Origin: an uncultured bacterium
GTDB lineage: Bacteria > Chloroflexota > UBA5177 > JANWHV01
Assembly (NCBI GenBank): GCA_963827235.1
Contig: CAWHAE010000009.1
Coordinates: 896,001-960,000, forward strand
Length of the DNA stretch: 64,000 nucleotides
Reading direction: 5' to 3'
The position numbers were made by a program, and so were the translations under genes. Shown in pieces: positions 1,439 to 25,694 of the stretch. Within the stretch, counting starts at the first letter, position 1. Every line of letters begins with the position of its first letter. The notes beneath the pieces were generated by a model that was not told the DNA's origin, searched no databases, and was given only the letters and a program-made list of their open reading frames with translations.

Positions 1439-2266
1439 GTGCCGAAGAAAGTAGCGACCGTGATCGATCGAGAGGCGTCTTCTGTCGGCACCAACGATAC
1501 CTGGCCGATGGTGTCCGCGCGCGACGTGCACAAGCACTTTGGACGGCTTCACGTGCTGCGCGGCGTGAACCTCACGGTGCCGAAGGGCCAGGTGCACGTG
1601 ATCATCGGTCCGAGCGGTTCTGGGAAGAGCACCATACTTCGCTGTCTGAACCACCTGGAGAAGATCCAGCAGGGAGAGATCCGCATCGACGGCGAGCTGA
1701 TGGGCTATCGCGTGGTGAACGGCAGGCTCAGAGAGGACACGGCGAAGAACATCGCCCGCATGCGATCGGAAGTGGGTATGGTGTTCCAGCGTTTCAACCT
1801 CTTTCCGCACATGACCGCGCTGGGCAATATCATCGAGGCGCCGATCCGGGTGAGGGGCATGTCCAAGGCCGAGGCAGTCGAGCGGGCGAACGTGTTGTTG
1901 CGGCGGGTGGGCATGGTGGAGAAGGCCAACTACTTCCCCTCGCAGCTCTCAGGCGGCCAGCAACAGCGCGTGGCCATTGCCCGGGCCCTGGCCATGGAAC
2001 CCAGAGTGATGTTGTTCGACGAGGCGACCAGCGCGCTTGATCCAGAGCTGGTGGGCGACGTGCTCAACGTGATGAAGCAGCTAGCCATGGACGGGATGAC
2101 CATGGTCGTGGTTACCCACGAGATGGGCTTCGCCCGCGACGTCGGCGATCACGTCGTGTTCATGGATAACGGCGTGATCATCGAGGAAGGCGAGCCGAAG
2201 CGTATTTTCGAGAATCCCGAGCAAGAGCGCACGCGGGCGTTCCTGAAGTCTGTGCTGCGAGGCTGA
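1439..2266 (+). CDS. Polar amino-acid ABC transporter ATP-binding protein (GlnQ family)
   Basis: Walker A GPSGSGKS, signature LSGGQQQR, Walker [15 protein letters not shown]. Confidence 0.95.
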
Positions 2267-2275
2267 GGTCCGGGC

Positions 2276-3181
2276 CTAGATCGGGAAGCCGCTGCGGATC
2301 CCCCTGGCGGCATATTGGTCCAGGACAAAGGCCTTGAACGCCGCGGTGGCAGGCGAGAGGGGGCGGTCCTCGACCCAGGCCATGCCGATCACGCGCACGC
2401 AGCGAGGCTGGGAGACGTGGATCAGCGTCGCCTCGTGCCGGCCGGTGATGCTCGACGCCGGCACGATGGAGACGCCGAGGCCCGCCGCCACCAGGCCGCG
2501 CACGGTGACCAGGTCGTCTCCCTCGAAGGCGATGCGCGGCGAGAAGCCGGCGGCCCGGCAGAGCTCGTCGGTGATGTGGCGCAGGCCGTCGCCTGCCTTG
2601 AGGCAGATCAGCGGCTCGTTCGCAATGTCGACCAGCTTGATCGAGTCCGATCCGGCCAGGGTATGGCCGTGGGGCACCTCGACGAGCAGCTCGTCGCTCA
2701 CCAGATCCGCCCAGCCGGTACCCTCCTCCGGACGAGTGCGCGCACAGAGGCCGAGGTCCACCTCTCCCCGGCGCAGCCAGCCCAGCACCACCGCCGAGGT
2801 GTCCTGCCGCAGCTGGAAGGCGGCTCGCGGCTGCAGGGGGCGGAAGGTGCTGACCAGCTCGGGCACGAGCCGCATGCCGAGCGCCTGCACAAAGCCCAGG
2901 CTGACGGTGTCGATCTCGGACTTGTCGATCTCCAGCAGCTCACGTCGCGCTACCGCGATCTGCTCAAGCGCGTTGTCGACGCGGACGAGGAAGGCACGGC
3001 CATAGCGATTGAGCCGCATCGATCGCCCCTCGCGATCGAAGAGCTGCACGCCGAGCTCGTGCTCCAGGGCGGCCAGGGCCCTGCTCAGCGCGGGCTGCGA
3101 GACATGCAGCTCGCGCGAGGCCCGCGTGACGTGCTGATAGCGGGCGAGCATCTGGAAGTACTCGAGCTGCTGCCACTCCAT
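2276..3181 (-). CDS. LysR family transcriptional regulator
   Basis: N-terminal HTH (HVTRASRELHVSQPALSR) plus substrate-binding domain; divergent from an MFS gene. Confidence 0.95.
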   Translation of the reverse strand: MEWQQLEYFQMLARYQHVTRASRELHVSQPALSRALAALEHELGVQLFDREGRSMRLNRYGRAFLVRVDNALEQIAVARRELLEIDKSEIDTVSLGFVQALGMRLVPELVSTFRPLQPRAAFQLRQDTSAVVLGWLRRGEVDLGLCARTRPEEGTGWADLVSDELLVEVPHGHTLAGSDSIKLVDIANEPLICLKAGDGLRHITDELCRAAGFSPRIAFEGDDLVTVRGLVAAGLGVSIVPASSITGRHEATLIHVSQPRCVRVIGMAWVEDRPLSPATAAFKAFVLDQYAARGIRSGFPI

Positions 3182-3403
3182 GGTACTCGCCGTTTCGAAT
3201 AGTCATGCACAAACGTCATTGATTATAATGCAGAAGATCTATTGGACGCCGCTGCCGTTTTGCTCGTAGCCTGAACGCATCGAAGCATCGTGCGACACCG
3301 GGCGCAGTGCACGGCTCGTTTGCAGGACCACGACGGTCTTTCGCGGACTCAGTGCTGAGGACGACTTCAGCCCGGGCTAGAGACGCGAAAGGTACTCACT
3401 GCC

Positions 3404-4669
3404 GTGAGCCCCGAGTCTGAGGCTGCCTATTTATTGCGAGGCACGTCCGAGTTTCGCCGCGCCAGCGTGGCACTTTTCCTGGCCGGATTCGTGACCTTCG
3501 ACGTGCTCTACTGCACACAGCCGTTGCTGCCCGTGTTTTCTGCCCAGTTCCACCAGTCTCCGGCCACTGCCAGCCTGGCGCTCTCCCTGACCACCGGCAC
3601 CATCGGCATTGCCATGATCGTGGCGGGCACGATCTCCGGGGTGTTGGGACGCAAGCGCGTGATGACGGTATCCATGTTCTGTTCGGCACTGCTGGTGATA
3701 CTGACGGCGCTCAGTCCCAGCTTCGGCGTGCTGCTCGCCGTCCGCGCCCTGCAGGGCGTGACCCTGGCCGGAATCCCGGCCGTGGCCATGGCATACCTGA
3801 CTGAGGAAGTGCGGCGGGACTCGCTCTGCGTGGCTATGGGCCTCTATATCAGCGGCAACACGATTGGCGGGATGTCCGCCCGCTTGCTGACCGGCGCGAT
3901 AACGGCCTTCGCGAGCTGGCGGGCGGCTCTGGTAGCGATCGGCGTGTTGAGCTTGCTGGCCTCGGCAGCCTTCCAGCGCATCCTTCCCGAGTCACGACAT
4001 TTCCGGCCGCGGCCGGCGGAGCCACGCTATCTCGCTTCGCAGTTGCTGTACAACCTGCGGGATCCCGGCCTGTGCCATCTGTTCGCCATGGGGGCCATCT
4101 TGATGGGCAGCTTCGTCACGCTGTTCAACTACCTGGGCTATCGCCTGACCTCGGCGCCCTACGGCCTGAGCCAGTGCACGGCAAGCCTGGTGTTCTTGGT
4201 CTACTTCGCCGGCACGTTCAGCTCGGCATGGATGGGCATGTTGTCGGCACGCTTCGGGCGGAGGCCGATCCTGATTGCCGGTGTATCGATCATGGCCGGC
4301 GGCCTGGGCCTTACCCTGTTCCAGCCGCTGCCGATCTTGATCTGCGGTGCGCTGCTCTTCACGTTCGGCTTCTTCGGCAGCCACTCCATCGCCAGCAGCT
4401 GGGTCGGCGCGCGCGCGCCGGGCGACAGCGCGCAGGCAGCGGCTCTCTACCTGCTGTTCTACTACCTCGGGTCCAGCACGTGCGGATTCGGCGGCGGCAT
4501 CGCCTGGGCGCGGTACGCCTGGCCGGGCGTGGCGGCTTTCATCAGCCTCATGTTGCTGGCCGGAATCTGGGTCGCCGTGCGCCTCGCGCACATCCCGTCC
4601 AGGCAGCAGCTGGTTCAGGAGCCGGCACCGCTCGGCACCGCTCGCGGCCGCGCCTCCAGCGCCGCGTAG
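3404..4669 (+). CDS. MFS transporter, YnfM-like
   Basis: LYCTQPLLP and GLYISGNTIGGMSAR motifs; about 12 hydrophobic segments. Confidence 0.9.
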   Translation: MSPESEAAYLLRGTSEFRRASVALFLAGFVTFDVLYCTQPLLPVFSAQFHQSPATASLALSLTTGTIGIAMIVAGTISGVLGRKRVMTVSMFCSALLVILTALSPSFGVLLAVRALQGVTLAGIPAVAMAYLTEEVRRDSLCVAMGLYISGNTIGGMSARLLTGAITAFASWRAALVAIGVLSLLASAAFQRILPESRHFRPRPAEPRYLASQLLYNLRDPGLCHLFAMGAILMGSFVTLFNYLGYRLTSAPYGLSQCTASLVFLVYFAGTFSSAWMGMLSARFGRRPILIAGVSIMAGGLGLTLFQPLPILICGALLFTFGFFGSHSIASSWVGARAPGDSAQAAALYLLFYYLGSSTCGFGGGIAWARYAWPGVAAFISLMLLAGIWVAVRLAHIPSRQQLVQEPAPLGTARGRASSAA

Positions 4670-4960
4670 CGCTCCCTTCACCGGCTTTGCCGGTAGGCCG
4701 CCTTCTCCTCATCGGCGTCCAGGGGACTGGTGGCGGCAGCGCGCGCTGCGTGAAGCCGCTCCGCGCAGACGGGAAACAGGAGGGCAATCGACACCACCGG
4801 AAGGTGCAGGCGAAGCGGATCGCGGCCGATAGGGGCGAAGCCGACGTCGCGCGTTTGGCTTTTCAGGGTGCTCCACATGGGGCATTGTTGGCCCCAACTG
4901 TTGCGCATACGATAGGATTGATCGATATGGCGCGGCAGTGGTTCGGAGTAAGGAGCGAGG

Positions 4961-12602: not shown

Positions 12603-14387
12603 CTATTGAGGATTCCGCAAACCGAACAGCCCGAATAGCTCGTCGGGGGTCAGATGTGATGCCATGTCGATGGTGGCATCGTCGACGATCTCGTCGAACA
12701 GCGCCTGCTTGTCCATCAGGATTCGCTCCACGCGCTCCTCGATCGTTCCCTCGCTCACGTACGCGTAGACGTTCACGGGGTACTGCTGCCCGAGGCGATG
12801 GCTGCGCGAATCGGCCTGCTGCTCTACCGCCGGATTCCACCAGCGATCGAAGTGGATGACGTACGACGCCTGCTGCAGATTCAATCCCTGCCCGCCGGCG
12901 CGAAGGGCGAGCACGAGCACCTTCCACTCGTCGTCCCGGCGGAAGCGGTCCAGCACACGCTCCCGCTCGTTCGGCGAGAGGTCGCCCGTATAGCTCAGAG
13001 CGGGGACGCCAAGGCGGGCAGCGATCGCCTTGGCACCGTTCTCCCGGTTCGCGAACTGGCTGAATACGAGCGCCTTGTGCCCTTCAGCCACCAGCGTATG
13101 CACGCGATCGCGCAGGTCGAGCAGTTTGCTCGATCGGCCGCTCGCCGGATCGAAGTTGCATATCTGTTTGAGGCGCACGATCAGCTCCAGCACGTTCTGG
13201 ATGCGTACCGCCGTGCCGAGCGACTGCAGCTCCACGATGCCCTGCTGTTCGGCCCGGTCATAGGCAAGGCGCTGGCTCTCCGTGAGCGGCAGCACGATGC
13301 TGCTGAACAGCTTCGGCGGCAGATCCTGCAGGACGTCGGCTTTGCGGCGCCGCAGCTGCACCTCACGCAGGCGTTCGCGCAGCTCGGCGGGAGTGACCAC
13401 GTGCCACGCCGATCGCGGCGGGGCCCGCTCTACCCACTGCAGTATCGACGCCAGATCGTCGACGCTGTTCTCCAGCGGCGTGCCACTCAGCGCCCAGCTA
13501 CGCTGCCGGCGGAGCCGCTTGCAGACCCGGCTGATATCCGTGTCGGCGTTCTTGATGCGCTGGGCCTCGTCGAGGATCACGAGATCCCATTGGCGTGCCA
13601 CCGACGCATGCGGATTGCCGGTGAAGTCCACGCGCAGCGTCTCATAGCTGATCAGGTAGGCGTGCGCGGGGACACGCCACCGCCAGGCTCGATCTCCCGG
13701 CTCGCCGTGGATCGTGGAGACCCTTAGCTCGGGCGCCCAGCGCTCTATCTCACCGCGCCATTGGGCGACCAGGCCTGCCGGCACTACCACAAGGGCCGCG
13801 CGGACCTGGCGCCGGTGAATGAGGATGCGCATCGCGGCGACGGCCTGGATGGTCTTGCCCAGGCCCATGTCGTCGGCCAGCAGGAGCGAGGACCGCTCGC
13901 TCAAGACCCGCACGCCCTTGGCCTGGAAGGGCAGGAGGGGGTCCGGCCACGCTACCGGGCCGTCTTGCGAGAGGAGCAGCTCCAGAGGAGGCTGCAGCAC
14001 CGCTGCGAGCAGGCGAGCGAACGACGTCGCAGGATCCGACTCGTACTGGACGCTGGATCTCCAATCCGCACCCCGACTATCCGACGGCTCCTGCCCGCGT
14101 GGCCACGGTGGTTGACCAGCGGGCGGGTCGAACACGTCCATGTCGGCGACGTAGACGCTGCCCCGATGCCGTTCCTCCTGGCGGATGCCGAGGTTTCGCA
14201 CCGTTTGCGCCGGGCCGGCGTCGATAGGCGGCAATCGCAGATGGCGGGGCTCCAGCAGGTGCGGAGCCGCCACGATCCCCCTCTCCGGCGTTCCAAGCTG
14301 GAGGCGCGTCCGGCGCCGGATTAGCCGGCGCAGCCGGGTCGGGCGCTCGACGGGACACTCGCGGAGCCAGGGCCGATCCCCACTCAT
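12603..14387 (-). CDS. SNF2-family (SF2) helicase/translocase
   Basis: ADDMGLGKT, DEAQ, SGTPLEN, GGQGLNL, WWNPAVEQQA and RSHRLGQ motifs. Confidence 0.95.
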   Translation of the reverse strand: MSGDRPWLRECPVERPTRLRRLIRRRTRLQLGTPERGIVAAPHLLEPRHLRLPPIDAGPAQTVRNLGIRQEERHRGSVYVADMDVFDPPAGQPPWPRGQEPSDSRGADWRSSVQYESDPATSFARLLAAVLQPPLELLLSQDGPVAWPDPLLPFQAKGVRVLSERSSLLLADDMGLGKTIQAVAAMRILIHRRQVRAALVVVPAGLVAQWRGEIERWAPELRVSTIHGEPGDRAWRWRVPAHAYLISYETLRVDFTGNPHASVARQWDLVILDEAQRIKNADTDISRVCKRLRRQRSWALSGTPLENSVDDLASILQWVERAPPRSAWHVVTPAELRERLREVQLRRRKADVLQDLPPKLFSSIVLPLTESQRLAYDRAEQQGIVELQSLGTAVRIQNVLELIVRLKQICNFDPASGRSSKLLDLRDRVHTLVAEGHKALVFSQFANRENGAKAIAARLGVPALSYTGDLSPNERERVLDRFRRDDEWKVLVLALRAGGQGLNLQQASYVIHFDRWWNPAVEQQADSRSHRLGQQYPVNVYAYVSEGTIEERVERILMDKQALFDEIVDDATIDMASHLTPDELFGLFGLRNPQ

Positions 14388-14951
14388 GGCCGCCGCGGGT
14401 CGGCTTCGCCGTAGAGCTCGTCCATGCCGGAGGAGGCCCGATTGAACGGCTCGAGCAGCAAGCCGTGCCGGGCAAGCTGCAGTGTCAAGGCCCGCTCGGT
14501 CGAGTCATCGGCAGGCGCGGCCGGATGCCAGAACAGATTCGAGCACCTCCTCCCACCGGATTTGCTCGGCTGCCTCGAGCGGCGACGGAGCGATTGACGC
14601 GCCGTAGGGTGCCACGCGGCAGACGGGCAGGTCCACGGCGATGTCCTCGGTGAACACTTCAGCCGGCATCTCATCGGCCAGGCAGAAGATAACGCGCGGC
14701 GCACGCGGGCACATGGCAAGCAGGGACTTGACCAGCAGGCGCGCGGCGGCCCGTCTGCTGTCTGCCGGCCGCCACAGGAAGCCGGAAGGCGTTTCCACCC
14801 TGTTGTAGGTGAACTCGACCGGCTCACCGCGAGCATTGACCTGGAAGAGCGCGGCTCGGAAGCCCGGCGGATTGGTCTTTGCTTCGAGCTTCAGGAACGC
14901 GGCCGTTCCCAAACTCTCGAGATCGTCGCGGTCGCGAAAGGGAACCGGCAT
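14384..14951 (-). CDS. Uncharacterised protein in the DUF2791/SNF2 operon (one frameshift near 14540)
   Basis: AGGAG RBS before ATG at 14951; one frame reads MPVPFRDRDD...EQIRWEEV, another continues FWHPAAP...LLEPFNRA to a stop overlapping the helicase start (ATGA). Confidence 0.75.
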
Positions 14952-14956
14952 GGCTC

Positions 14957-16240
14957 CTACTCGTCGGAGGAAGGCGACGTACTGTCCGGGTACTCCAGGT
15001 CCACGTCTTCGGTGAAGTCGGATACCAGCGGCGTCACTTCGATCTGGGGCTCGTAGCCGGGGTATAGCCGCTTCAGGTCCCACTCGGTGATCCACCAGCG
15101 CACGTACTCCCGCATCGACGTGCTCGTCGCGTAGGGCGGCGATCCTACCTCGGGAGGGTCCCATTCGTAGGCGCGGGCGTGCAAGCCGCGTACCTGCTCA
15201 TAAGTGCGTTGTATGGTGGCCCTGGTAGGTGCCTTCAGACGCTCGGCTCGGGTAATGGCACGCATGCCTCGCTCGGCCAGCGCTGCCAGCTTCTGATCGT
15301 CATCCCGCATACCGGCCCGCAGCTTGTTGGGCACGTTTTCGCGATCGTGGCGCATGTCCAGCATGTACGTCTCGTAGTCGGAGGTGACGGCAGAGACGGT
15401 GATCAGGCACGGCATGGGCTCGCCCGAGCCGCCGCCCGTCCAGCGCGCCAGCTCGGCATATGACCGGGCGCGCTGGGGCAAGCTGTAGCGGCCGATGAGC
15501 TCTACTTCGTCGATCAGCAAGACCCAGCCGCGAAATCCGGCCGCCAGGATCAGTCGGGCCGCGAAGCGGAAGCGCTGCAGGGCCAGGCTCTTCTGGTCGA
15601 CCTTGTCGAACAGGTAGGAGACGTGCTCCCCATACGCTTTCAGCGCGCGTTTGAGCTCCCCGATACCGATCGGATCGCCGGCCCAGAAGGCGAGGATGCG
15701 CTCGTACAGCTCGGGGTCGTGATGCCGGGCGTGCTCGAAGAGGTACAACGTAGCGGCGAATCGCTGGTTCAGCACCTCCGGGCGCGTCTGCTGCACCCAG
15801 GTGAAGAAGTCGAGGAACGGCTCGCCGCGCGGATTGATCTCCTCTCCAATCTGGGCCAGCACGGCACCGCGGCGCCCCGGCGCCTGCGCCGCGTTGATTG
15901 CCGCGCGAAAGACCTTGGCCGGGTCGTACAGCGGTGTTTCCTTGCTGATCACGACTTTGCTGGCCACGAATCGCTGTTCCAGGGCGCGGTGCTGGAGACT
16001 CTCCAGGAGGTGGGATTTCCCGGAGCCGAAGTTCCCTGCCACGGAAAAGCCCGACGGACCGGGGGCATCCACGCCACGCTCGACGGTGGAGCTGAGGAGG
16101 TTCTGAAACCGATCCTCAATGCCGGTGGCGGCGGACTGCAGCGCGTTGACCGCATCTCGATTCGGCACGCCTGAGCGAAGCGCCTCGAGCGCACGCCGAG
16201 CCTCGATCTGATTGGTTGGGCCGGCGATCATGGTGTCCAT
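14957..16240 (-). CDS. DUF2791 / BrxD-like P-loop ATPase (intact Walker motifs)
   Basis: N-terminal ARRALEALRSGVP, Walker A GNFGSGKSH, Walker B VLLIDEVE, SYAEL. Confidence 0.85.
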   Translation of the reverse strand: MDTMIAGPTNQIEARRALEALRSGVPNRDAVNALQSAATGIEDRFQNLLSSTVERGVDAPGPSGFSVAGNFGSGKSHLLESLQHRALEQRFVASKVVISKETPLYDPAKVFRAAINAAQAPGRRGAVLAQIGEEINPRGEPFLDFFTWVQQTRPEVLNQRFAATLYLFEHARHHDPELYERILAFWAGDPIGIGELKRALKAYGEHVSYLFDKVDQKSLALQRFRFAARLILAAGFRGWVLLIDEVELIGRYSLPQRARSYAELARWTGGGSGEPMPCLITVSAVTSDYETYMLDMRHDRENVPNKLRAGMRDDDQKLAALAERGMRAITRAERLKAPTRATIQRTYEQVRGLHARAYEWDPPEVGSPPYATSTSMREYVRWWITEWDLKRLYPGYEPQIEVTPLVSDFTEDVDLEYPDSTSPSSDE

Positions 16241-16243
16241 CGA

Positions 16244-17215
16244 TCATGCTGCCGGGCCGGAAAGCCGAACGAGAGCGGAGAGCGGATTGGCCCGCGAGCG
16301 GTCGTGTACCTCGTCCCATATACGCAGCTTGAGGGCGGCGTATTTCGGCAGGCCTCGCCTGTCGTCGGTGAGGAACGCCGTGGGAGCGATGGCGGCGATC
16401 AGGCACCCTTCCAGCTCGTCGGTGCCGTCGATGAACTGCCGCAGCACCTCGTAGGCGTCGAGAACCGCCGTGCTGGAATGGAAGAGCAAGCCGTCCGGCT
16501 CGACGTAGCGCCGCTCGACGACATAGCGAGAGACGTCGAGCACGAGTACGAAGCCGCGCTTTCCCGTCGCTCTCAGCCAATGTGCGAACGAGAGGAACAT
16601 GTCGCGCGCCAGGTTCCGCCCAACCTTCTGGAAGACGCCGGCCGGCTTGAGGGCGGAGACCCGGCGGAGCTCGCCACGCAGCCAGAGATGAATGTTCTCG
16701 ATCTCGCTAAGCTCGGCGACGCTGACCTCCAGGTATGCCTGGCACAGCCGCAGCATGGCGCTGCGAAACTCGTGCACCATGGAGTAATCGTGTTCCACGC
16801 GTTCGTGCAGCAACACGCGCACGCGTCGCCGGAGCTCGGTCTCGCTCGTTCCGTTGAGTGCCGCGATCACCTGGTAAGTGCAGCGATCCGTCTCCGGAGG
16901 CAGTACGTAGCCATCGGCACTGAGCAGGGAGCGCATCAAGTCGCCGGCCAGCGCGTTCCAGTCGACCTGCCGTGCCAGGGCGTGGAATAGCTGGTCGATC
17001 ATGTGGATTCGCGTCTCCGCGCCGTCCACGGTGAAGCAGCACAGGCCGTGCTGGGCTGCCAGAACCTCCAGTGATCGCCGTATGTCGCCGGCAGTGACGG
17101 GTGGCGTGGCTATGGCGAACTTCACCGCGGCGCCACCGGCCGGAATGAACGACTGCAAATACTCGTTCTCGACGACGGCCAGCCACTCGGCCAGCGGCAA
17201 CCCCATGCTCATCAT
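16244..17215 (-). CDS. DUF2791 / BrxD-like paralogue with degenerate Walker A/B
   Basis: GGAAVKF in place of the P-loop, VLVLDVS in place of Walker B; WLRGE, YEVLRQFID and YAALKLRI motifs characteristic of the family. Confidence 0.75.
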   Translation of the reverse strand: MMSMGLPLAEWLAVVENEYLQSFIPAGGAAVKFAIATPPVTAGDIRRSLEVLAAQHGLCCFTVDGAETRIHMIDQLFHALARQVDWNALAGDLMRSLLSADGYVLPPETDRCTYQVIAALNGTSETELRRRVRVLLHERVEHDYSMVHEFRSAMLRLCQAYLEVSVAELSEIENIHLWLRGELRRVSALKPAGVFQKVGRNLARDMFLSFAHWLRATGKRGFVLVLDVSRYVVERRYVEPDGLLFHSSTAVLDAYEVLRQFIDGTDELEGCLIAAIAPTAFLTDDRRGLPKYAALKLRIWDEVHDRSRANPLSALVRLSGPAA

Positions 17216-18084
17216 TCCGTTCCCTCGCGGAACGAGATGCCGAAATAGCGCTTCTCGGCTCCCGTCTGCGTCACGATGGAAATCACGCCGCGTTCAGACT
17301 TGGTTCCAGTGCTGGCATGGAACTCGATCGTGGCACCGTCCTTCGTGATTGTGGTCCCGCTCTGATCCAGCAGATAGACGTCGCGGGCAAGCTCCTGCAC
17401 CGCGTACTCGCGCGTGCGACCGGGCATCAGGGTGAAGAGGTCGTAGAGCTCCCGCAGCGGCACAACCGAGCCGACATGGCGCTGCCCGGGGTTGCGCTCG
17501 ACGGCGATCCGGTACGCGGTCCACAGGGACTCCAGGAAGGCATCCGACTTGAAGCGCGGCTGTTGCTTCTGCCGGTCGCGCAACCCGCTCACCAGCACGG
17601 ATGGGCGGATGCGACGTTCCGGCTTGCGGTCGATCTTCACGGCGCGATCCGCGGCCGAGACGCTGATCAGCACGGGATAGCAATAGAGGCGATCGTCTTG
17701 CAGTACCAGTCGCAAGCCCTGTCTGCGCGCTTCCTCGAGAACCTCGTCGACGAATCCGCCGTCTCGCAGGTATGCCTCCTCGTCGAAGTCCCACGCCACT
17801 TCTATGCGCTGCACTTCATGGTCGAGCCCGTTCATGCTCTGGCGCACGGCTTCCGGAGCGGCGCGAAGCTTGCGCAGATCGCCGTCTCGCGCCGCCTTGC
17901 GCATACCCTTGATCGCTTTCACCACCTTGTCGGCGGTCTTCAGCACGGCCTCGGCGTTGGCTTCTGCCTGAGCAAGTGCTTCTTCCAGCGTTTGCGTGTG
18001 CTCGGCGGTAGTCACGAGCGCGCGAATCCTTCTTTCTTCGTCGCAATCACCAGGAAAGCGAGCATCCATCCCATGATAGCCCAT
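17212..18084 (-). CDS. Uncharacterised protein with N-terminal coiled coil; first gene of the DUF2791 operon
   Basis: Long ORF with helical heptad-like N-terminus; stop overlaps next start (ATGA at 17212-17215). Confidence 0.8.
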   Translation of the reverse strand: MGYHGMDARFPGDCDEERRIRALVTTAEHTQTLEEALAQAEANAEAVLKTADKVVKAIKGMRKAARDGDLRKLRAAPEAVRQSMNGLDHEVQRIEVAWDFDEEAYLRDGGFVDEVLEEARRQGLRLVLQDDRLYCYPVLISVSAADRAVKIDRKPERRIRPSVLVSGLRDRQKQQPRFKSDAFLESLWTAYRIAVERNPGQRHVGSVVPLRELYDLFTLMPGRTREYAVQELARDVYLLDQSGTTITKDGATIEFHASTGTKSERGVISIVTQTGAEKRYFGISFREGTE

Positions 18085-19785: not shown

Positions 19786-19974
19786 CGGGCGGAACGCGTC
19801 GGGCAGCGGGGCGGCGGTCTCACCGCGATGCAGGCTCTGACGGGCGCTCCCGGAGGCGGCCGAGACGGCCGCGGTCCCGGGATTGCCGGAGTGTAGCCCT
19901 GAGTCGCCGAGTGGATGCTCGAGCCGGCCCCGGCTCTTGCCAGCGCACGGCTCGGTAGTGCATGCTAAGCCTGT

Positions 19975-21363
19975 ATGAACGCCGAGTTGGAGAGGCGCAT
20001 CCGCGAGCGCACGGCGCAGGTCTGCGTGATTGGCCTGGGCTACGTCGGGCTGCCCCTGGCAACGGAGTTCGCCGAGGCCGGCTACCACGTGGTCGGTGTC
20101 GACCTGGACACGACCAAGATCGAGTCGCTGCGCGCCGGCACGAGCTACATTCCGGACGTGCCGTCCAGCCGCCTGGCGCCGCTGGTGCAGGTTGGCAAGC
20201 TGTCGGCGACCACCGACTATCAGGCGCTCGACCCATCGCCGGACGCGGTGTTCATCTGCGTGCCCACGCCGTACACCACCTTGAAGGTGCCCGATCTGAG
20301 CTATATCACGGAAGCCGCACGCGCCATCGCCGCGGCGCTGCGACCGGGCCAGCTCGTGGTGCTCGAGAGCACGACGTACCCGGGCACCACGGAGGAGCTG
20401 GTGCTTCCCATCCTGGAGGGGGCGGGCGACCTCATGCACGAGCGCGATTTCTTCCTTGCCTTCTCGCCCGAGCGCATCGACCCCGGCCATTCGCACTACG
20501 ACATCGGTACCGTGACCAAGGTGGTGGGCGGGGCCGGACCCGAGGGCGGGCGGTTGGCCTTGCTGCTGTTCGAGAGCGTGGCGCCGGGGAAAGTGCACGC
20601 CGTGTCCTCGGCCCGGGCGGCGGAGATGGCCAAGCTGCTGGAGAACACCTTTCGCAGCGTGAACATCGCGCTGGTGAACGAGCTGGCCATGCTGGCCGAG
20701 CGGATGGGACTCGACATCTGGGAAGTGATCGACGCCGCGTCGACGAAGCCCTTCGGCTTCATGCCCTTCTATCCCGGCCCGGGCGTGGGCGGCCACTGCA
20801 TCCCGGTCGATCCGTTCTACCTGAGCTGGAAGGCACGCGAGTTCGACTTCTACACGCGGTTCGTGGAGCTGGCAGCGGAGACGAACGACAACATGCCGTT
20901 CCACACCGTCGACCTGATCGCCAGGGCGCTGGACAGTCATCAGCGATCGGTCAACGGCTCGCGCATTCTGGCCCTGGGCGTGGCGTTCAAGCGCGACGTC
21001 GACGACGCGCGCAATTCGCCGTCGCAGCGCGTGATCGAGCTGTTGCGCACGCGGGGTGCCGACGTACGCTACCACGATCCGCATGTGCCGGTGTTTCGCG
21101 TCTCCGGCACGGTGTTCGGCAAGAACGGATCCACGGACCTGCGATCCGTGCCGCTCTCGGATGAAGAGCTGGGTGAGGCGGATGCCGTGGTCGTCCTGGT
21201 AGCGCACAGCGCGATCGACTTCACCCGGGTTGCCCGTGGCGCGCAGATCCTGGTGGACACGACGGGCGCCACTCGGCAATCTTCCCGTGCGGATATCTGG
21301 CGTCTCGGCGCCCCTGCTCCGAGCGGAGAGGCGGGGCGCCGCGCCGGCGTAGCCACTCCTTGA
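19975..21363 (+). CDS. Nucleotide-sugar dehydrogenase (UDP-GlcNAc/ManNAc 6-dehydrogenase type)
   Basis: GLGYVGLP, ESTTYPGTT, SPERIDPG, catalytic GGHCIPVDP, AFKRDVDDARNSP. Confidence 0.93.
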   Translation: MNAELERRIRERTAQVCVIGLGYVGLPLATEFAEAGYHVVGVDLDTTKIESLRAGTSYIPDVPSSRLAPLVQVGKLSATTDYQALDPSPDAVFICVPTPYTTLKVPDLSYITEAARAIAAALRPGQLVVLESTTYPGTTEELVLPILEGAGDLMHERDFFLAFSPERIDPGHSHYDIGTVTKVVGGAGPEGGRLALLLFESVAPGKVHAVSSARAAEMAKLLENTFRSVNIALVNELAMLAERMGLDIWEVIDAASTKPFGFMPFYPGPGVGGHCIPVDPFYLSWKAREFDFYTRFVELAAETNDNMPFHTVDLIARALDSHQRSVNGSRILALGVAFKRDVDDARNSPSQRVIELLRTRGADVRYHDPHVPVFRVSGTVFGKNGSTDLRSVPLSDEELGEADAVVVLVAHSAIDFTRVARGAQILVDTTGATRQSSRADIWRLGAPAPSGEAGRRAGVATP

Positions 21364-24835: not shown

Positions 24836-24941
24836 GGCGACACAAGGAAGTGGCTGGGACGGACAGCTGCCCAAGGATAACGAAGGTCGTCGAGCAGCCC
24901 GGCCGGATCCTGCCGAGGGACCGTGGGTAGCGCGCGCCGTC

Positions 24942-25694
24942 TCACGTCCAGCGGATGCGCACCATCTTCCGCCAGAGATCGAGCAGATCGACGTCGCCGC
25001 GCACGTCAAGCCCGTCATAGGTACGCCGGTTCCAGAGCAGAAGGTGTAGGTCTGAGGCGCCTGCGCACACCGTGCATTCGGCGGCAGCGGTCTCCAACCG
25101 GACCTCTATGCCTTCCGGCAGGATGTTGACGAGCCAGTCGCGGTCCGCGTCCGTAGCCTGCAGCGCCAGGGTCCTGTGCGTTTCGCTGCGCAGGCGGCCG
25201 CCGGGACGGCTGGCGAAGCCCAGCAGGATCTCGTCGATGCCGTCGGCAGCGAAGTCGGGCGGGTACGGCGTGATGCTGCCCGTGGCGCTCTCGACGTCGG
25301 CGCGGTGGATGCCGGTCTCGTGTGCCTGACGGCGGGCCCAGAAGGCCAGCGGGGACGGCGCGGCGAGAAAGGACCAGCAAGCGAGGTCCGCGGGCGCGCT
25401 TTCCAGCGCCTGCACGAGCGCGGCATGGCCGGCGCGGAACCACTCGATCAGGCGGTCGTCCGCGGGCGCGCTGTCGAAGCAGGCGTCTTCCTCCTCCTTG
25501 CTCGGCGGCACGGTCAGGCGCCCGGCGACGGAGGCGGTGGCCCAGCGATGGACGCCTCCGAGATGTCGCACCAGGTCGCGCATTCTCCAGTCGGGGCACG
25601 ACGGGATCGCCGCGGAGAACTCGGTACGCTCGGCGGCAGCGGCAAACAGGGCGCCTTCACGGCGCAGGGCGGCGATATGGGTCTTGATTTCCAT
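24942..25694 (-). CDS. Maleylpyruvate isomerase family (MDMPI/DinB superfamily) enzyme
   Basis: PSCPDWRMRDLVRHLGGVHRWA, RRQAHETGIHRAD, AADGIDE. Confidence 0.9.
   Translation of the reverse strand: MEIKTHIAALRREGALFAAAAERTEFSAAIPSCPDWRMRDLVRHLGGVHRWATASVAGRLTVPPSKEEEDACFDSAPADDRLIEWFRAGHAALVQALESAPADLACWSFLAAPSPLAFWARRQAHETGIHRADVESATGSITPYPPDFAADGIDEILLGFASRPGGRLRSETHRTLALQATDADRDWLVNILPEGIEVRLETAAAECTVCAGASDLHLLLWNRRTYDGLDVRGDVDLLDLWRKMVRIRWT

Follow-up and report, generated by a model that had tools for sequence, protein, structure and literature searches.

Results

A five-gene cassette on the minus strand

We analysed a 64-kb stretch of DNA (positions 1–64,000, hereafter the window) from an uncultured member of the Chloroflexota, whose genome we call G000; related loci are labelled L and genomes G. 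On the minus strand of the window, between positions 12603 and 18084, lie five co-oriented open reading frames (ORFs), tightly packed in the order A-B-C-D-E. They encode a protein without a named family (A), two related proteins of the family formerly called DUF2791 (B and C), a protein that is broken by a frameshift in this copy (D), and an SNF2-family ATPase (E; Table 1). A and B overlap through an ATGA at 17212–17215, as do D and E at 14384–14387, and gaps of only 3 nt (16241–16243) and 5 nt (14952–14956) separate B from C and C from D, respectively. An earlier, sequence-only reading of this DNA had reported the same five co-oriented genes, with both overlaps, both gaps and unrelated flanks, and the coordinates that we recomputed agree with it. 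The GTG at 18015 is the likely start of A because it yields the length of the database call (267 aa), homologues align from residue ∼24–33, and an AAGGA lies upstream. No sigma-70-like promoter match was found.

Table 1. Coordinates of the cassette genes and of the parts of gene D in the window.
Feature	Position	Strand	Description
Gene A	17212–18084	minus	290 aa at most; 267 aa from the likely GTG start at 18015
Gene B	16244–17215	minus	323 aa; P-loop-dead BrxC_BrxD/DUF2791 paralogue of C, by profile comparison
Gene C	14957–16240	minus	427 aa; BrxD/SngB-like ORC/Cdc6-clade AAA+ ATPase
Gene D	14384–14951	minus	two frames, broken by frameshift
Gene D, 5′ part	14505–14951	minus	148 codons and premature stop; predicted Endonuclease V/PIWI-like RNase H fold elements
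Gene D, 3′ part	14384–14554	minus	other frame; second profile match at G000:C9:910393-910554
Gene D, frameshift site	14541–14554	minus	small indel in variable linker
Gene E	12603–14387	minus	594 aa; SNF2-family ATPase/translocase

A-B-C is an invariant core and D-E a frequent linked module

Our survey covered 401 Chloroflexota genomes from 217 genera. Gene A was present, always as a single copy, in 25 genomes (18 genera), and the surrounding locus was read in all 25. The A-B-C order was seen in 24 genomes, all except G378, where A-B is followed by the end of the contig. Conservation of gene order across genomes had been proposed as a check in the sequence-only reading, and it holds: the same order recurs in 24 other genomes, and the order of the cassette is therefore far beyond chance.

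What follows C is more variable. Separate D and E genes come after C in 11 genomes, the window included; in single genomes D and E lie on another small contig (G167), form one 703-aa ORF (G258), or are represented by D and then a contig end (G074), and in one genome E directly follows C without D (G064). One further copy is decayed (G245): B is interrupted by a stop, D is split in two and only 33 aa of E remain. In two genomes the contig is too short to show D or E (G001 and G378). In the remaining seven (G357, G080, G317, G176, G027, G051 and G306), A-B-C is followed by unrelated genes, and a profile of D, the same model that finds D in the positive genomes, found no D anywhere in these seven genomes. 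Because 7 of the 25 genomes carry A-B-C with neither D nor E close by, the D-E pair is not obligatory. Thus, A-B-C is an invariant core, and D-E is a frequent linked module.

The D profile identified D in 16 of the 401 genomes, 15 of which bear A, so that D is found in 15 of the 25 A-bearing genomes and is essentially private to the cassette. The D-positive genome without A (G346; L003, the same locus as L029) carries only a C-D-E remnant, in which the frames of C and E are broken; B is missing as well, and an extra 140-aa ORF lies between C and D. Homologues of D also occur in metagenome-assembled genomes (MAGs) labelled Deltaproteobacteria.

The distribution of A is uneven at close range as well. 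Among four genomes of the same genus, A is missing from two (G127, 83% complete, and G154, 87% complete), and the A of G064, from the same class as the window genome, is 40% identical, compared with 52% for that of G234, from another family. The patchy distribution, the differing flanks and the decay in G245 and G346 mark the cassette as accessory.

B and C pair a degenerate with an intact ATPase

Both B and C pass the gathering score (22.2 bits) of PF10923 (BrxC_BrxD, the former DUF2791), C with 62.6 bits (E = 4.2e-17) and B with 42.4 bits (E = 5.7e-11), the match of B covering profile positions 134–332 only. When B and C were compared by hhalign, they aligned over 207 columns (94.1%, E = 1.2e-7); by this comparison the two proteins are paralogues. 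In the alignment, the segment ATPPVTAGD of B stands opposite the P-loop of C, GNFGSGKSH. The Walker A motif of C, G[DGNQ][FY]G.GKSHL, and its Walker B motif, L[LFI]DE.EL, are kept in all 20 copies compared, and the columns G72, G74, K75, S76, D244 and E245 are invariant in a 22-row alignment. B keeps the strand that comes before the P-loop (GGAAVKF), but the P-loop itself is lost in 19 of 20 copies; the most divergent copy, that of L023, retains GRPGSGKT. The sequence-only reading had described these genes as a degenerate and an intact DUF2791 protein, a description that this pattern across copies and the hhalign paralogy bear out.

Among PADLOC models, BrxD outranks SngB for both proteins. 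C matches BrxD with E = 5.8e-15, and the SngB matches are 2.8e-5 (21.4 bits) for C and 2.4e-5 (21.6 bits) for B. These SngB matches place C and B with SngB in one broad family and do not amount to orthology. Matches of C to BrxC models are at the level of the P-loop only (E = 8e-4 and 8e-3), as are those to the sequences of solved structures (E≥0.07), which include BrxC-BrxB and DnaC/DnaI-type loaders. Two other, weak PF10923 matches are found in genome G000 outside the window, one of 29.4 bits at C9:40360-40509 (L006, in a 524-aa open frame) and one of 23.7 bits at C12:1524647-1524817 (L007, in a 968-aa open frame); these are other BrxC/D-like P-loop proteins in a genome that is without PglZ.

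E is an SNF2 ATPase linked to D

E matches PF00176 (SNF2-rel_dom; 161 bits, E = 4e-47) and PF00271 (Helicase_C; 72.8 bits, E = 3.4e-20), and motifs I, II, III and VI can be read in its translation as DDMGLGKT, DEAQ, SGTPLEN and QQADSRSHRLGQ. Judged from these profiles and motifs, E is an SNF2 ATPase with its motifs intact. Its N-terminal ∼140 residues form a variable linker with a few short conserved motifs in the alignment. The best PADLOC match of E is to the core of ZorD (2.3e-73), with further matches to the helicase cores of DpdE and DrmD and to BrxHI/HII; its nearest NCBIfam models include pilus-expression-regulating Snf2 and RapA-type helicases.

In the one-contig genome G258, D and E are encoded as a single ORF of 703 aa (L018:10180-12291), in which an N-terminal Endonuclease V (EndoV)-fold domain corresponding to D is joined by a linker of ∼80 residues to the SNF2 core. 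This natural fusion, and the near confinement of D to the cassette, link D to E.

D is modelled with an EndoV/PIWI-like fold

Gene D has no match in Pfam, PADLOC or NCBIfam, nor a sequence match to solved chains. An intact orthologue (L001), modelled from an alignment of 51 sequences, gave a mean predicted local distance difference test (pLDDT) of 88.2. A Foldseek search with this model returned EndoV of Thermotoga maritima as the best match (4.7e-6) and 51 matches in total at E≤1e-3, those listed all being RNase H-fold proteins. VIA comparisons over ∼150 residues gave Z scores of 10.9 for 2qh9, 9.0–9.8 for EndoV, 8.5–8.9 for Argonaute PIWI domains and 8.3 for UvrC, with NurA also among the matches. 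As modelled, D is an EndoV/PIWI-like RNase H fold. The sequence-only reading had seen no recognisable nuclease in the operon, and this must now be revised, in that D models with a nuclease-type fold, with its catalytic competence doubtful.

In EndoV/PIWI-type RNase H folds, the first catalytic aspartate of the DEDx set sits in strand beta1. In D, beta1 (residues 17–26) has no conserved acidic column, the best being a glutamate in 28 of 51 sequences, and nuclease activity of D is therefore doubtful. Conservation lies elsewhere: in L001 numbering, E43, W60, R61, W141, E167 and R171 are invariant, E94, D64 and D103 are nearly so, and many arginines are conserved.

The frameshift to which the sequence-only reading had alluded is real in the assembly. 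The frame of D that opens at 14951 runs to a stop at 14505–14507, which is 118 nt before the start of E, while the conserved C-terminal 48 residues lie in another frame that continues to 14384; the profile of intact D matches both pieces, which overlap at 14541–14554. The 3′ part carries the invariant W141, E167, P168 and R171 (L001 numbering), and its stop overlaps the start of E in the ATGA. Thirteen relatives have an unbroken D ORF of 143–198 aa (178–198 aa in 11 of them; that of L022 starts late). We considered a programmed frameshift and rejected it: no shift is needed to read D in these 13 relatives, L018 has D as part of a fused D-E ORF, and the only other split copy (G245) belongs to a decayed cassette. 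The 3′ frame has stayed open and conserved right up to the ATGA overlap that closes it, and the frameshift is therefore either very recent or an assembly error; the other genes of the window give no sign of widespread fragmentation or frame breaks. Unless the frameshift is an assembly error, the copy in the window may, from its sequence, be crippled.

A heads a family of hypothetical proteins

A has no match in Pfam, PADLOC or NCBIfam. Its AlphaFold (AF2) model, built from 50 aligned sequences (pLDDT 90.4), has a long helical hairpin at residues 33–97 and, after it, a part made of alpha/beta and helical elements, in keeping with the “coiled-coil unknown” that the sequence-only reading placed first in the operon. 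Foldseek found nothing in PDB at E≤0.001. In two VIA searches, matches to the coiled-coil hairpin (residues 31–100; Z up to 10.1, which is uninformative for long helices) took up the results, and residues 101–288 had weak matches only, to frataxin (Z 6.0), RPC34 (Z 5.9) and a condensin kleisin (Z 6.5). From these weak fold matches, the C-terminal part of A may be winged-helix-like. An Atlas search with residues 100–290 returned clusters of “hypothetical protein” only. A complex prediction for A (residues 31–290), B and C gave a score of 0.16 (mark 0.32) without controls and speaks neither for nor against binding.

The family of A is large. Its profile matched 1073 cluster representatives at E≤1e-3, and 359 at E≤1e-30, out of 1.84 billion. 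Named members are all “hypothetical protein” and come from MAGs labelled Chloroflexota, Candidatus Binatia, Nitrospinota and Candidatus Dormibacteria; taken together, members of the A and D families carry MAG labels from four or five phyla. One A cluster at 90% identity (that of P0265) mixes MAGs labelled Candidatus Binatia and Nitrospinota, which reflects either a recent transfer or a binning error.

A sister cassette combines the core with an Lhr-type helicase

In two genomes of one genus, a second operon lies directly upstream of A-B-C (L013:481-6628 in G027 and L010:608-5537 in G001). It encodes an uncharacterised 278-aa protein, two PF10923 ATPases of 452 and 388 aa (2e-49 and 6e-21), both of which also give AAA_16 matches, and a 722-aa DEAD/Lhr-type helicase whose C-terminal domain is Cas3-like and which also has WH_Lhr; the next gene codes for a Uma2 nuclease fold. 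When 40 sequences of the 278-aa family were made into a profile, it aligned by hhalign with that of A over 174 columns (94.6%, E = 6.6e-8). Because A is homologous to the first gene of this sister cassette, the same kind of core is found with two sorts of helicase, SNF2 and Lhr-type. Like the cassette in the window, the sister cassette thus has an A-homologous first gene, two PF10923 ATPases and then a helicase; unlike it, the helicase is of the DEAD/Lhr type and D is absent. Beyond A-B-C, in the downstream direction, lie an IS200-type transposase gene and one for a DEAD helicase of 1126 aa.

Genomic neighbourhoods

In the window, the cassette is flanked on one side by a GH38 glycosidase, a URO-D-like protein and a weak PD40-like or uncharacterised ORF, and on the other by a LysR regulator, a UDP-glucose dehydrogenase and a major facilitator superfamily (MFS) transporter. 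The clearest defence-island context among the loci examined is that of L016 (G151), where the full cassette stands between HsdR (a type I R subunit of 1054 aa, upstream) and Mrr (downstream), at 1597–4761 and 13007–13915 of the locus, respectively; a 485-aa uncharacterised gene and a UDG-superfamily gene accompany it on the HsdR side. A PIN gene is found in the neighbourhood at L009, and the sister cassette, Uma2 and the IS200 transposase at L013. At L020:10367-12424 and L021:7461-9524 (G080 and G317, of one genus), where the cassettes consist of A-B-C only, a convergent gene for a 685-aa protein, with a nuclease domain like that of NgoFVII/phospholipase D, lies ∼270 nt from the end of C. At another A-B-C-only locus (G357), a co-oriented gene 191 nt downstream (L015:7803-9560) encodes a divergent Cpn60/TCP-1-family protein (585 aa, 231 bits), followed by a 416-aa protein without a Pfam match.

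A bulk PADLOC scan took in 150 of 161 flanking ORFs, at 15 loci, leaving out 11 (those of L010 and L024 and one of L009). It matched 185 families, without assignment to individual ORFs and dominated by two L013 helicases, and was not used as a score for defence. The BrxHI and SngC models matched 2 of the 150 ORFs, which the output does not name and which are taken to be these two L013 helicases.

The nearest genome without A is G154 (5.4 Mb; its UDP-glucose dehydrogenase is 87% identical), compared with which G000 is 8.0 Mb, 95.9% complete and 9% contaminated. The window aligns to a 19-kb stretch of G154 (L033) only at 19936–21320 and 24941–25445. With no more than these two stretches aligning, a large part of the window is foreign to G154 or variable, and the cassette, being outside the syntenic part that starts at 19936, falls within a variable block. 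In this empty-site comparison, no clean insertion boundary could be defined.

Discussion

Defence, maintenance or relic

We consider it most likely, with a probability of roughly 0.55, that the cassette is an ATP-driven surveillance system against foreign DNA, whether phage or plasmid, and thus defence-like. This reading draws on the homology of the parts, on the patchy distribution and on the occasional defence neighbours. Several observations weigh against it. Defence- or mobile-type neighbours occur, as a raw count, at only ∼4 or 5 of ∼16 loci examined, and most of the neighbours checked are ordinary (gyrA, ClpB, MoeA, ComEC, a glycosyltransferase, an E1 dehydrogenase and oxidoreductases), as are the metabolic and housekeeping genes that flank the cassette in the window. 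The G+C content of the five genes (0.645–0.674) and their G+C content at third codon positions (GC3) agree with the rest of the window and the host. A single peptide pattern found no relatives of A in viral contigs, none were present in 72,556 plasmid or 50,697 phage records, and neither a tRNA (window positions 1–30000), an integrase nor meaningful flanking repeats were found. To these must be added the seven genomes in which neither D nor E lies near A-B-C, the missing acidic column in beta1 of D, and the frameshift in the window's own D. An alternative to immunity is a chromosomal DNA-maintenance module of the host, in which the ORC-like ATPase pair would place the SNF2 motor at particular DNA structures, for example for fork or R-loop rescue, for RapA-like, transcription-coupled remodelling or for reading lesions in the manner of EndoV. 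The mostly housekeeping neighbourhoods, the host-like composition and the failure to detect carriage on mobile elements favour this explanation, and so do the fold relatives of D, since EndoV, UvrC and NurA are repair proteins, and the pilus-regulating Snf2 and RapA-type helicases among the nearest models of E. However, the cassette is confined to 25 of the 401 genomes surveyed in the phylum, and G127 and G154, of the same genus, lack A; the cassette has decayed repeatedly (in G245, in G346 and in D of the window); its helicase has been exchanged between sister cassettes; and the identities of A are out of step with taxonomy, as the comparison of G064 with G234 demonstrates. On balance we regard a maintenance role as unlikely.

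It is far less probable still that the cassette is a fragment or subtype of a described system, be it the BrxD-BrxHI dyad of BREX types 2 and 6, Shango, Zorya, DISARM or Dpd. Such an origin is suggested by the PADLOC matches of B and C to BrxD and SngB, and of E to ZorD, DpdE, DrmD and BrxHI/HII. Yet the equivalog scores are all far below their cut-offs: for BrxD (NF033438, 350 bits), C reaches 54.4 and B 30.9 bits, and E, in matches confined to the helicase core, reaches 152 of 1500 bits for ZorD, 88 and 74.5 against 610 and 950 for DrmD, and 88.9 of 500 for DpdE. PglZ (PF08665) has no match across the whole 8.0-Mb genome (95.9% complete), a search whose control was positive in 2 of 14 reference genomes, and neither the PglX methyltransferase, BrxC/PglY nor PglW was found in the window flanks. 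No TerB domain was found in A or D with Pfam or PADLOC (E≤0.01), there was no SngA match, SngC was absent from the best 25 of 49 PADLOC matches, and the helicase is of the SNF2 rather than the Lhr/DEAD type. Because PglZ is lacking, A is without TerB, and A and D are unmatched in PADLOC and NCBIfam, the cassette is neither BREX nor Shango. A literature search on BrxD/DUF2791, Shango and EndoV-Snf2 defence, with supplements outside its scope, found no description of the cassette, and we know of no DefenseFinder system that matches it. The sequence-only reading had taken the operon to be self-contained and to fit no described architecture, and this view survives: the cassette is a genuine, undescribed accessory unit whose genes are conserved together.

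There is, separately, a substantial chance, not far short of even, that the copy in the window is a dying relic without function here, in which a real frameshift has removed from D the conserved C-terminal helices and the translational coupling into E. The frameshift with its premature stop upstream of E, the absence of widespread frame breaks from the remaining window genes, and the decay in G245 and G346 are what such a relic would leave. Against this, the other four genes are unbroken and have a host-like GC3 of 0.77–0.83, the 3′ frame of D is open and conserved up to the ATGA overlap, and cassettes without D exist elsewhere (G064 and the seven A-B-C-only genomes).

A model for a defence-like cassette

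If the cassette is a surveillance system against foreign DNA, its parts could work together as follows. C, the live AAA+ ATPase, would form a heteromer with B, whose P-loop is dead; that the two are paralogues, one live and one dead, is observed, and their pairing we infer. A could serve this pair as an adaptor or a DNA-binding sensor. By analogy with the loader idea published for BrxD and BrxHI, the A-B-C core would recruit or load the D-E effector module, in which the predicted EndoV/PIWI-fold protein is tethered to an SNF2 DNA translocase; D-E might nick, bind or remodel DNA. Because the canonical aspartate of beta1 is absent, D may bind rather than cut.

A broader proposal is more tentative, and we would not give it an even chance. 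In this proposal, a new and widespread class of ORC/Cdc6-like “loader” immune systems would be made up of A, the live and dead BrxD-type ATPases and a helicase that can be exchanged (SNF2 with an EndoV/PIWI-fold partner, or the Lhr-type of the sister cassette). An origin-recognition-like heteromer, kept together by a family-specific adaptor with winged-helix and coiled-coil parts, would recognise foreign DNA and load onto it a translocase equipped with a non-canonical RNase H-fold reader or nuclease; Shango and the BrxD-BrxHI pair of BREX type 2 would be reduced relatives.

ATPases of the BrxD/SngB type belong to two validated anti-phage systems whose mechanisms are unexplained, and the cassette presents a compact ATPase-helicase form free of BREX parts. 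The dead/live pair, the Rosetta-stone fusion of D with E, and the sister cassette with its swapped helicase make the hypothesis that BrxD is a helicase loader directly testable. Should the defence role prove true, the cassette would represent a family of systems that is at present without a name among PADLOC and NCBIfam models, and a second immune context, besides Argonautes, for the PIWI/EndoV-like fold. All members that were looked up belong to uncultured bacteria, a possible reason for the family having been overlooked.

Comparison with known systems

EndoV, the PIWI domain of prokaryotic Argonautes and the C-terminal half of UvrC share the modelled fold of D; D differs from them in lacking the conserved beta1 aspartate, in its set of invariant residues, and in having no sequence-level or Pfam match. 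ZorD, DrmD and HmaA likewise unite an SNF2 translocase core and a domain of nuclease type, as D-E does, HmaA being described as the SNF2 protein of Hma with a C-terminal PD-(D/E)xK nickase (PMC11232893). The nucleases of these three proteins are Mrr/PD-(D/E)xK domains fused C-terminally, whereas the D of our cassette has a predicted EndoV/PIWI RNase H fold and is encoded by an upstream gene or fused N-terminally. Neither ZorABC, DrmABC nor HmaBC is present with the cassette.

Shango consists of the TerB-like SngA, the ATPase SngB and the DEAD/DEAH helicase SngC (PMC10250203). It likewise joins a small accessory protein, a DUF2791-type ATPase and a helicase, and it is a stand-alone anti-phage operon (PMC10250203). 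In contrast to Shango, the cassette has no TerB, its ATPase is duplicated, its helicase is of the SNF2 type, and a protein of predicted EndoV fold is added. In type 2 BREX (Pgl), BrxD is an ORC-Cdc6 AAA+ ATPase in a tight dyad with BrxHI, which it may load or activate (PMC12839542). That dyad likewise couples a small stand-alone PF10923 ATPase to a tightly linked superfamily 2 (SF2) helicase (PMC12839542); relative to it, the cassette has an SNF2 rather than a Ski2/Lhr-like helicase, two ATPase paralogues, one of them P-loop-dead, and the additional proteins A and D.

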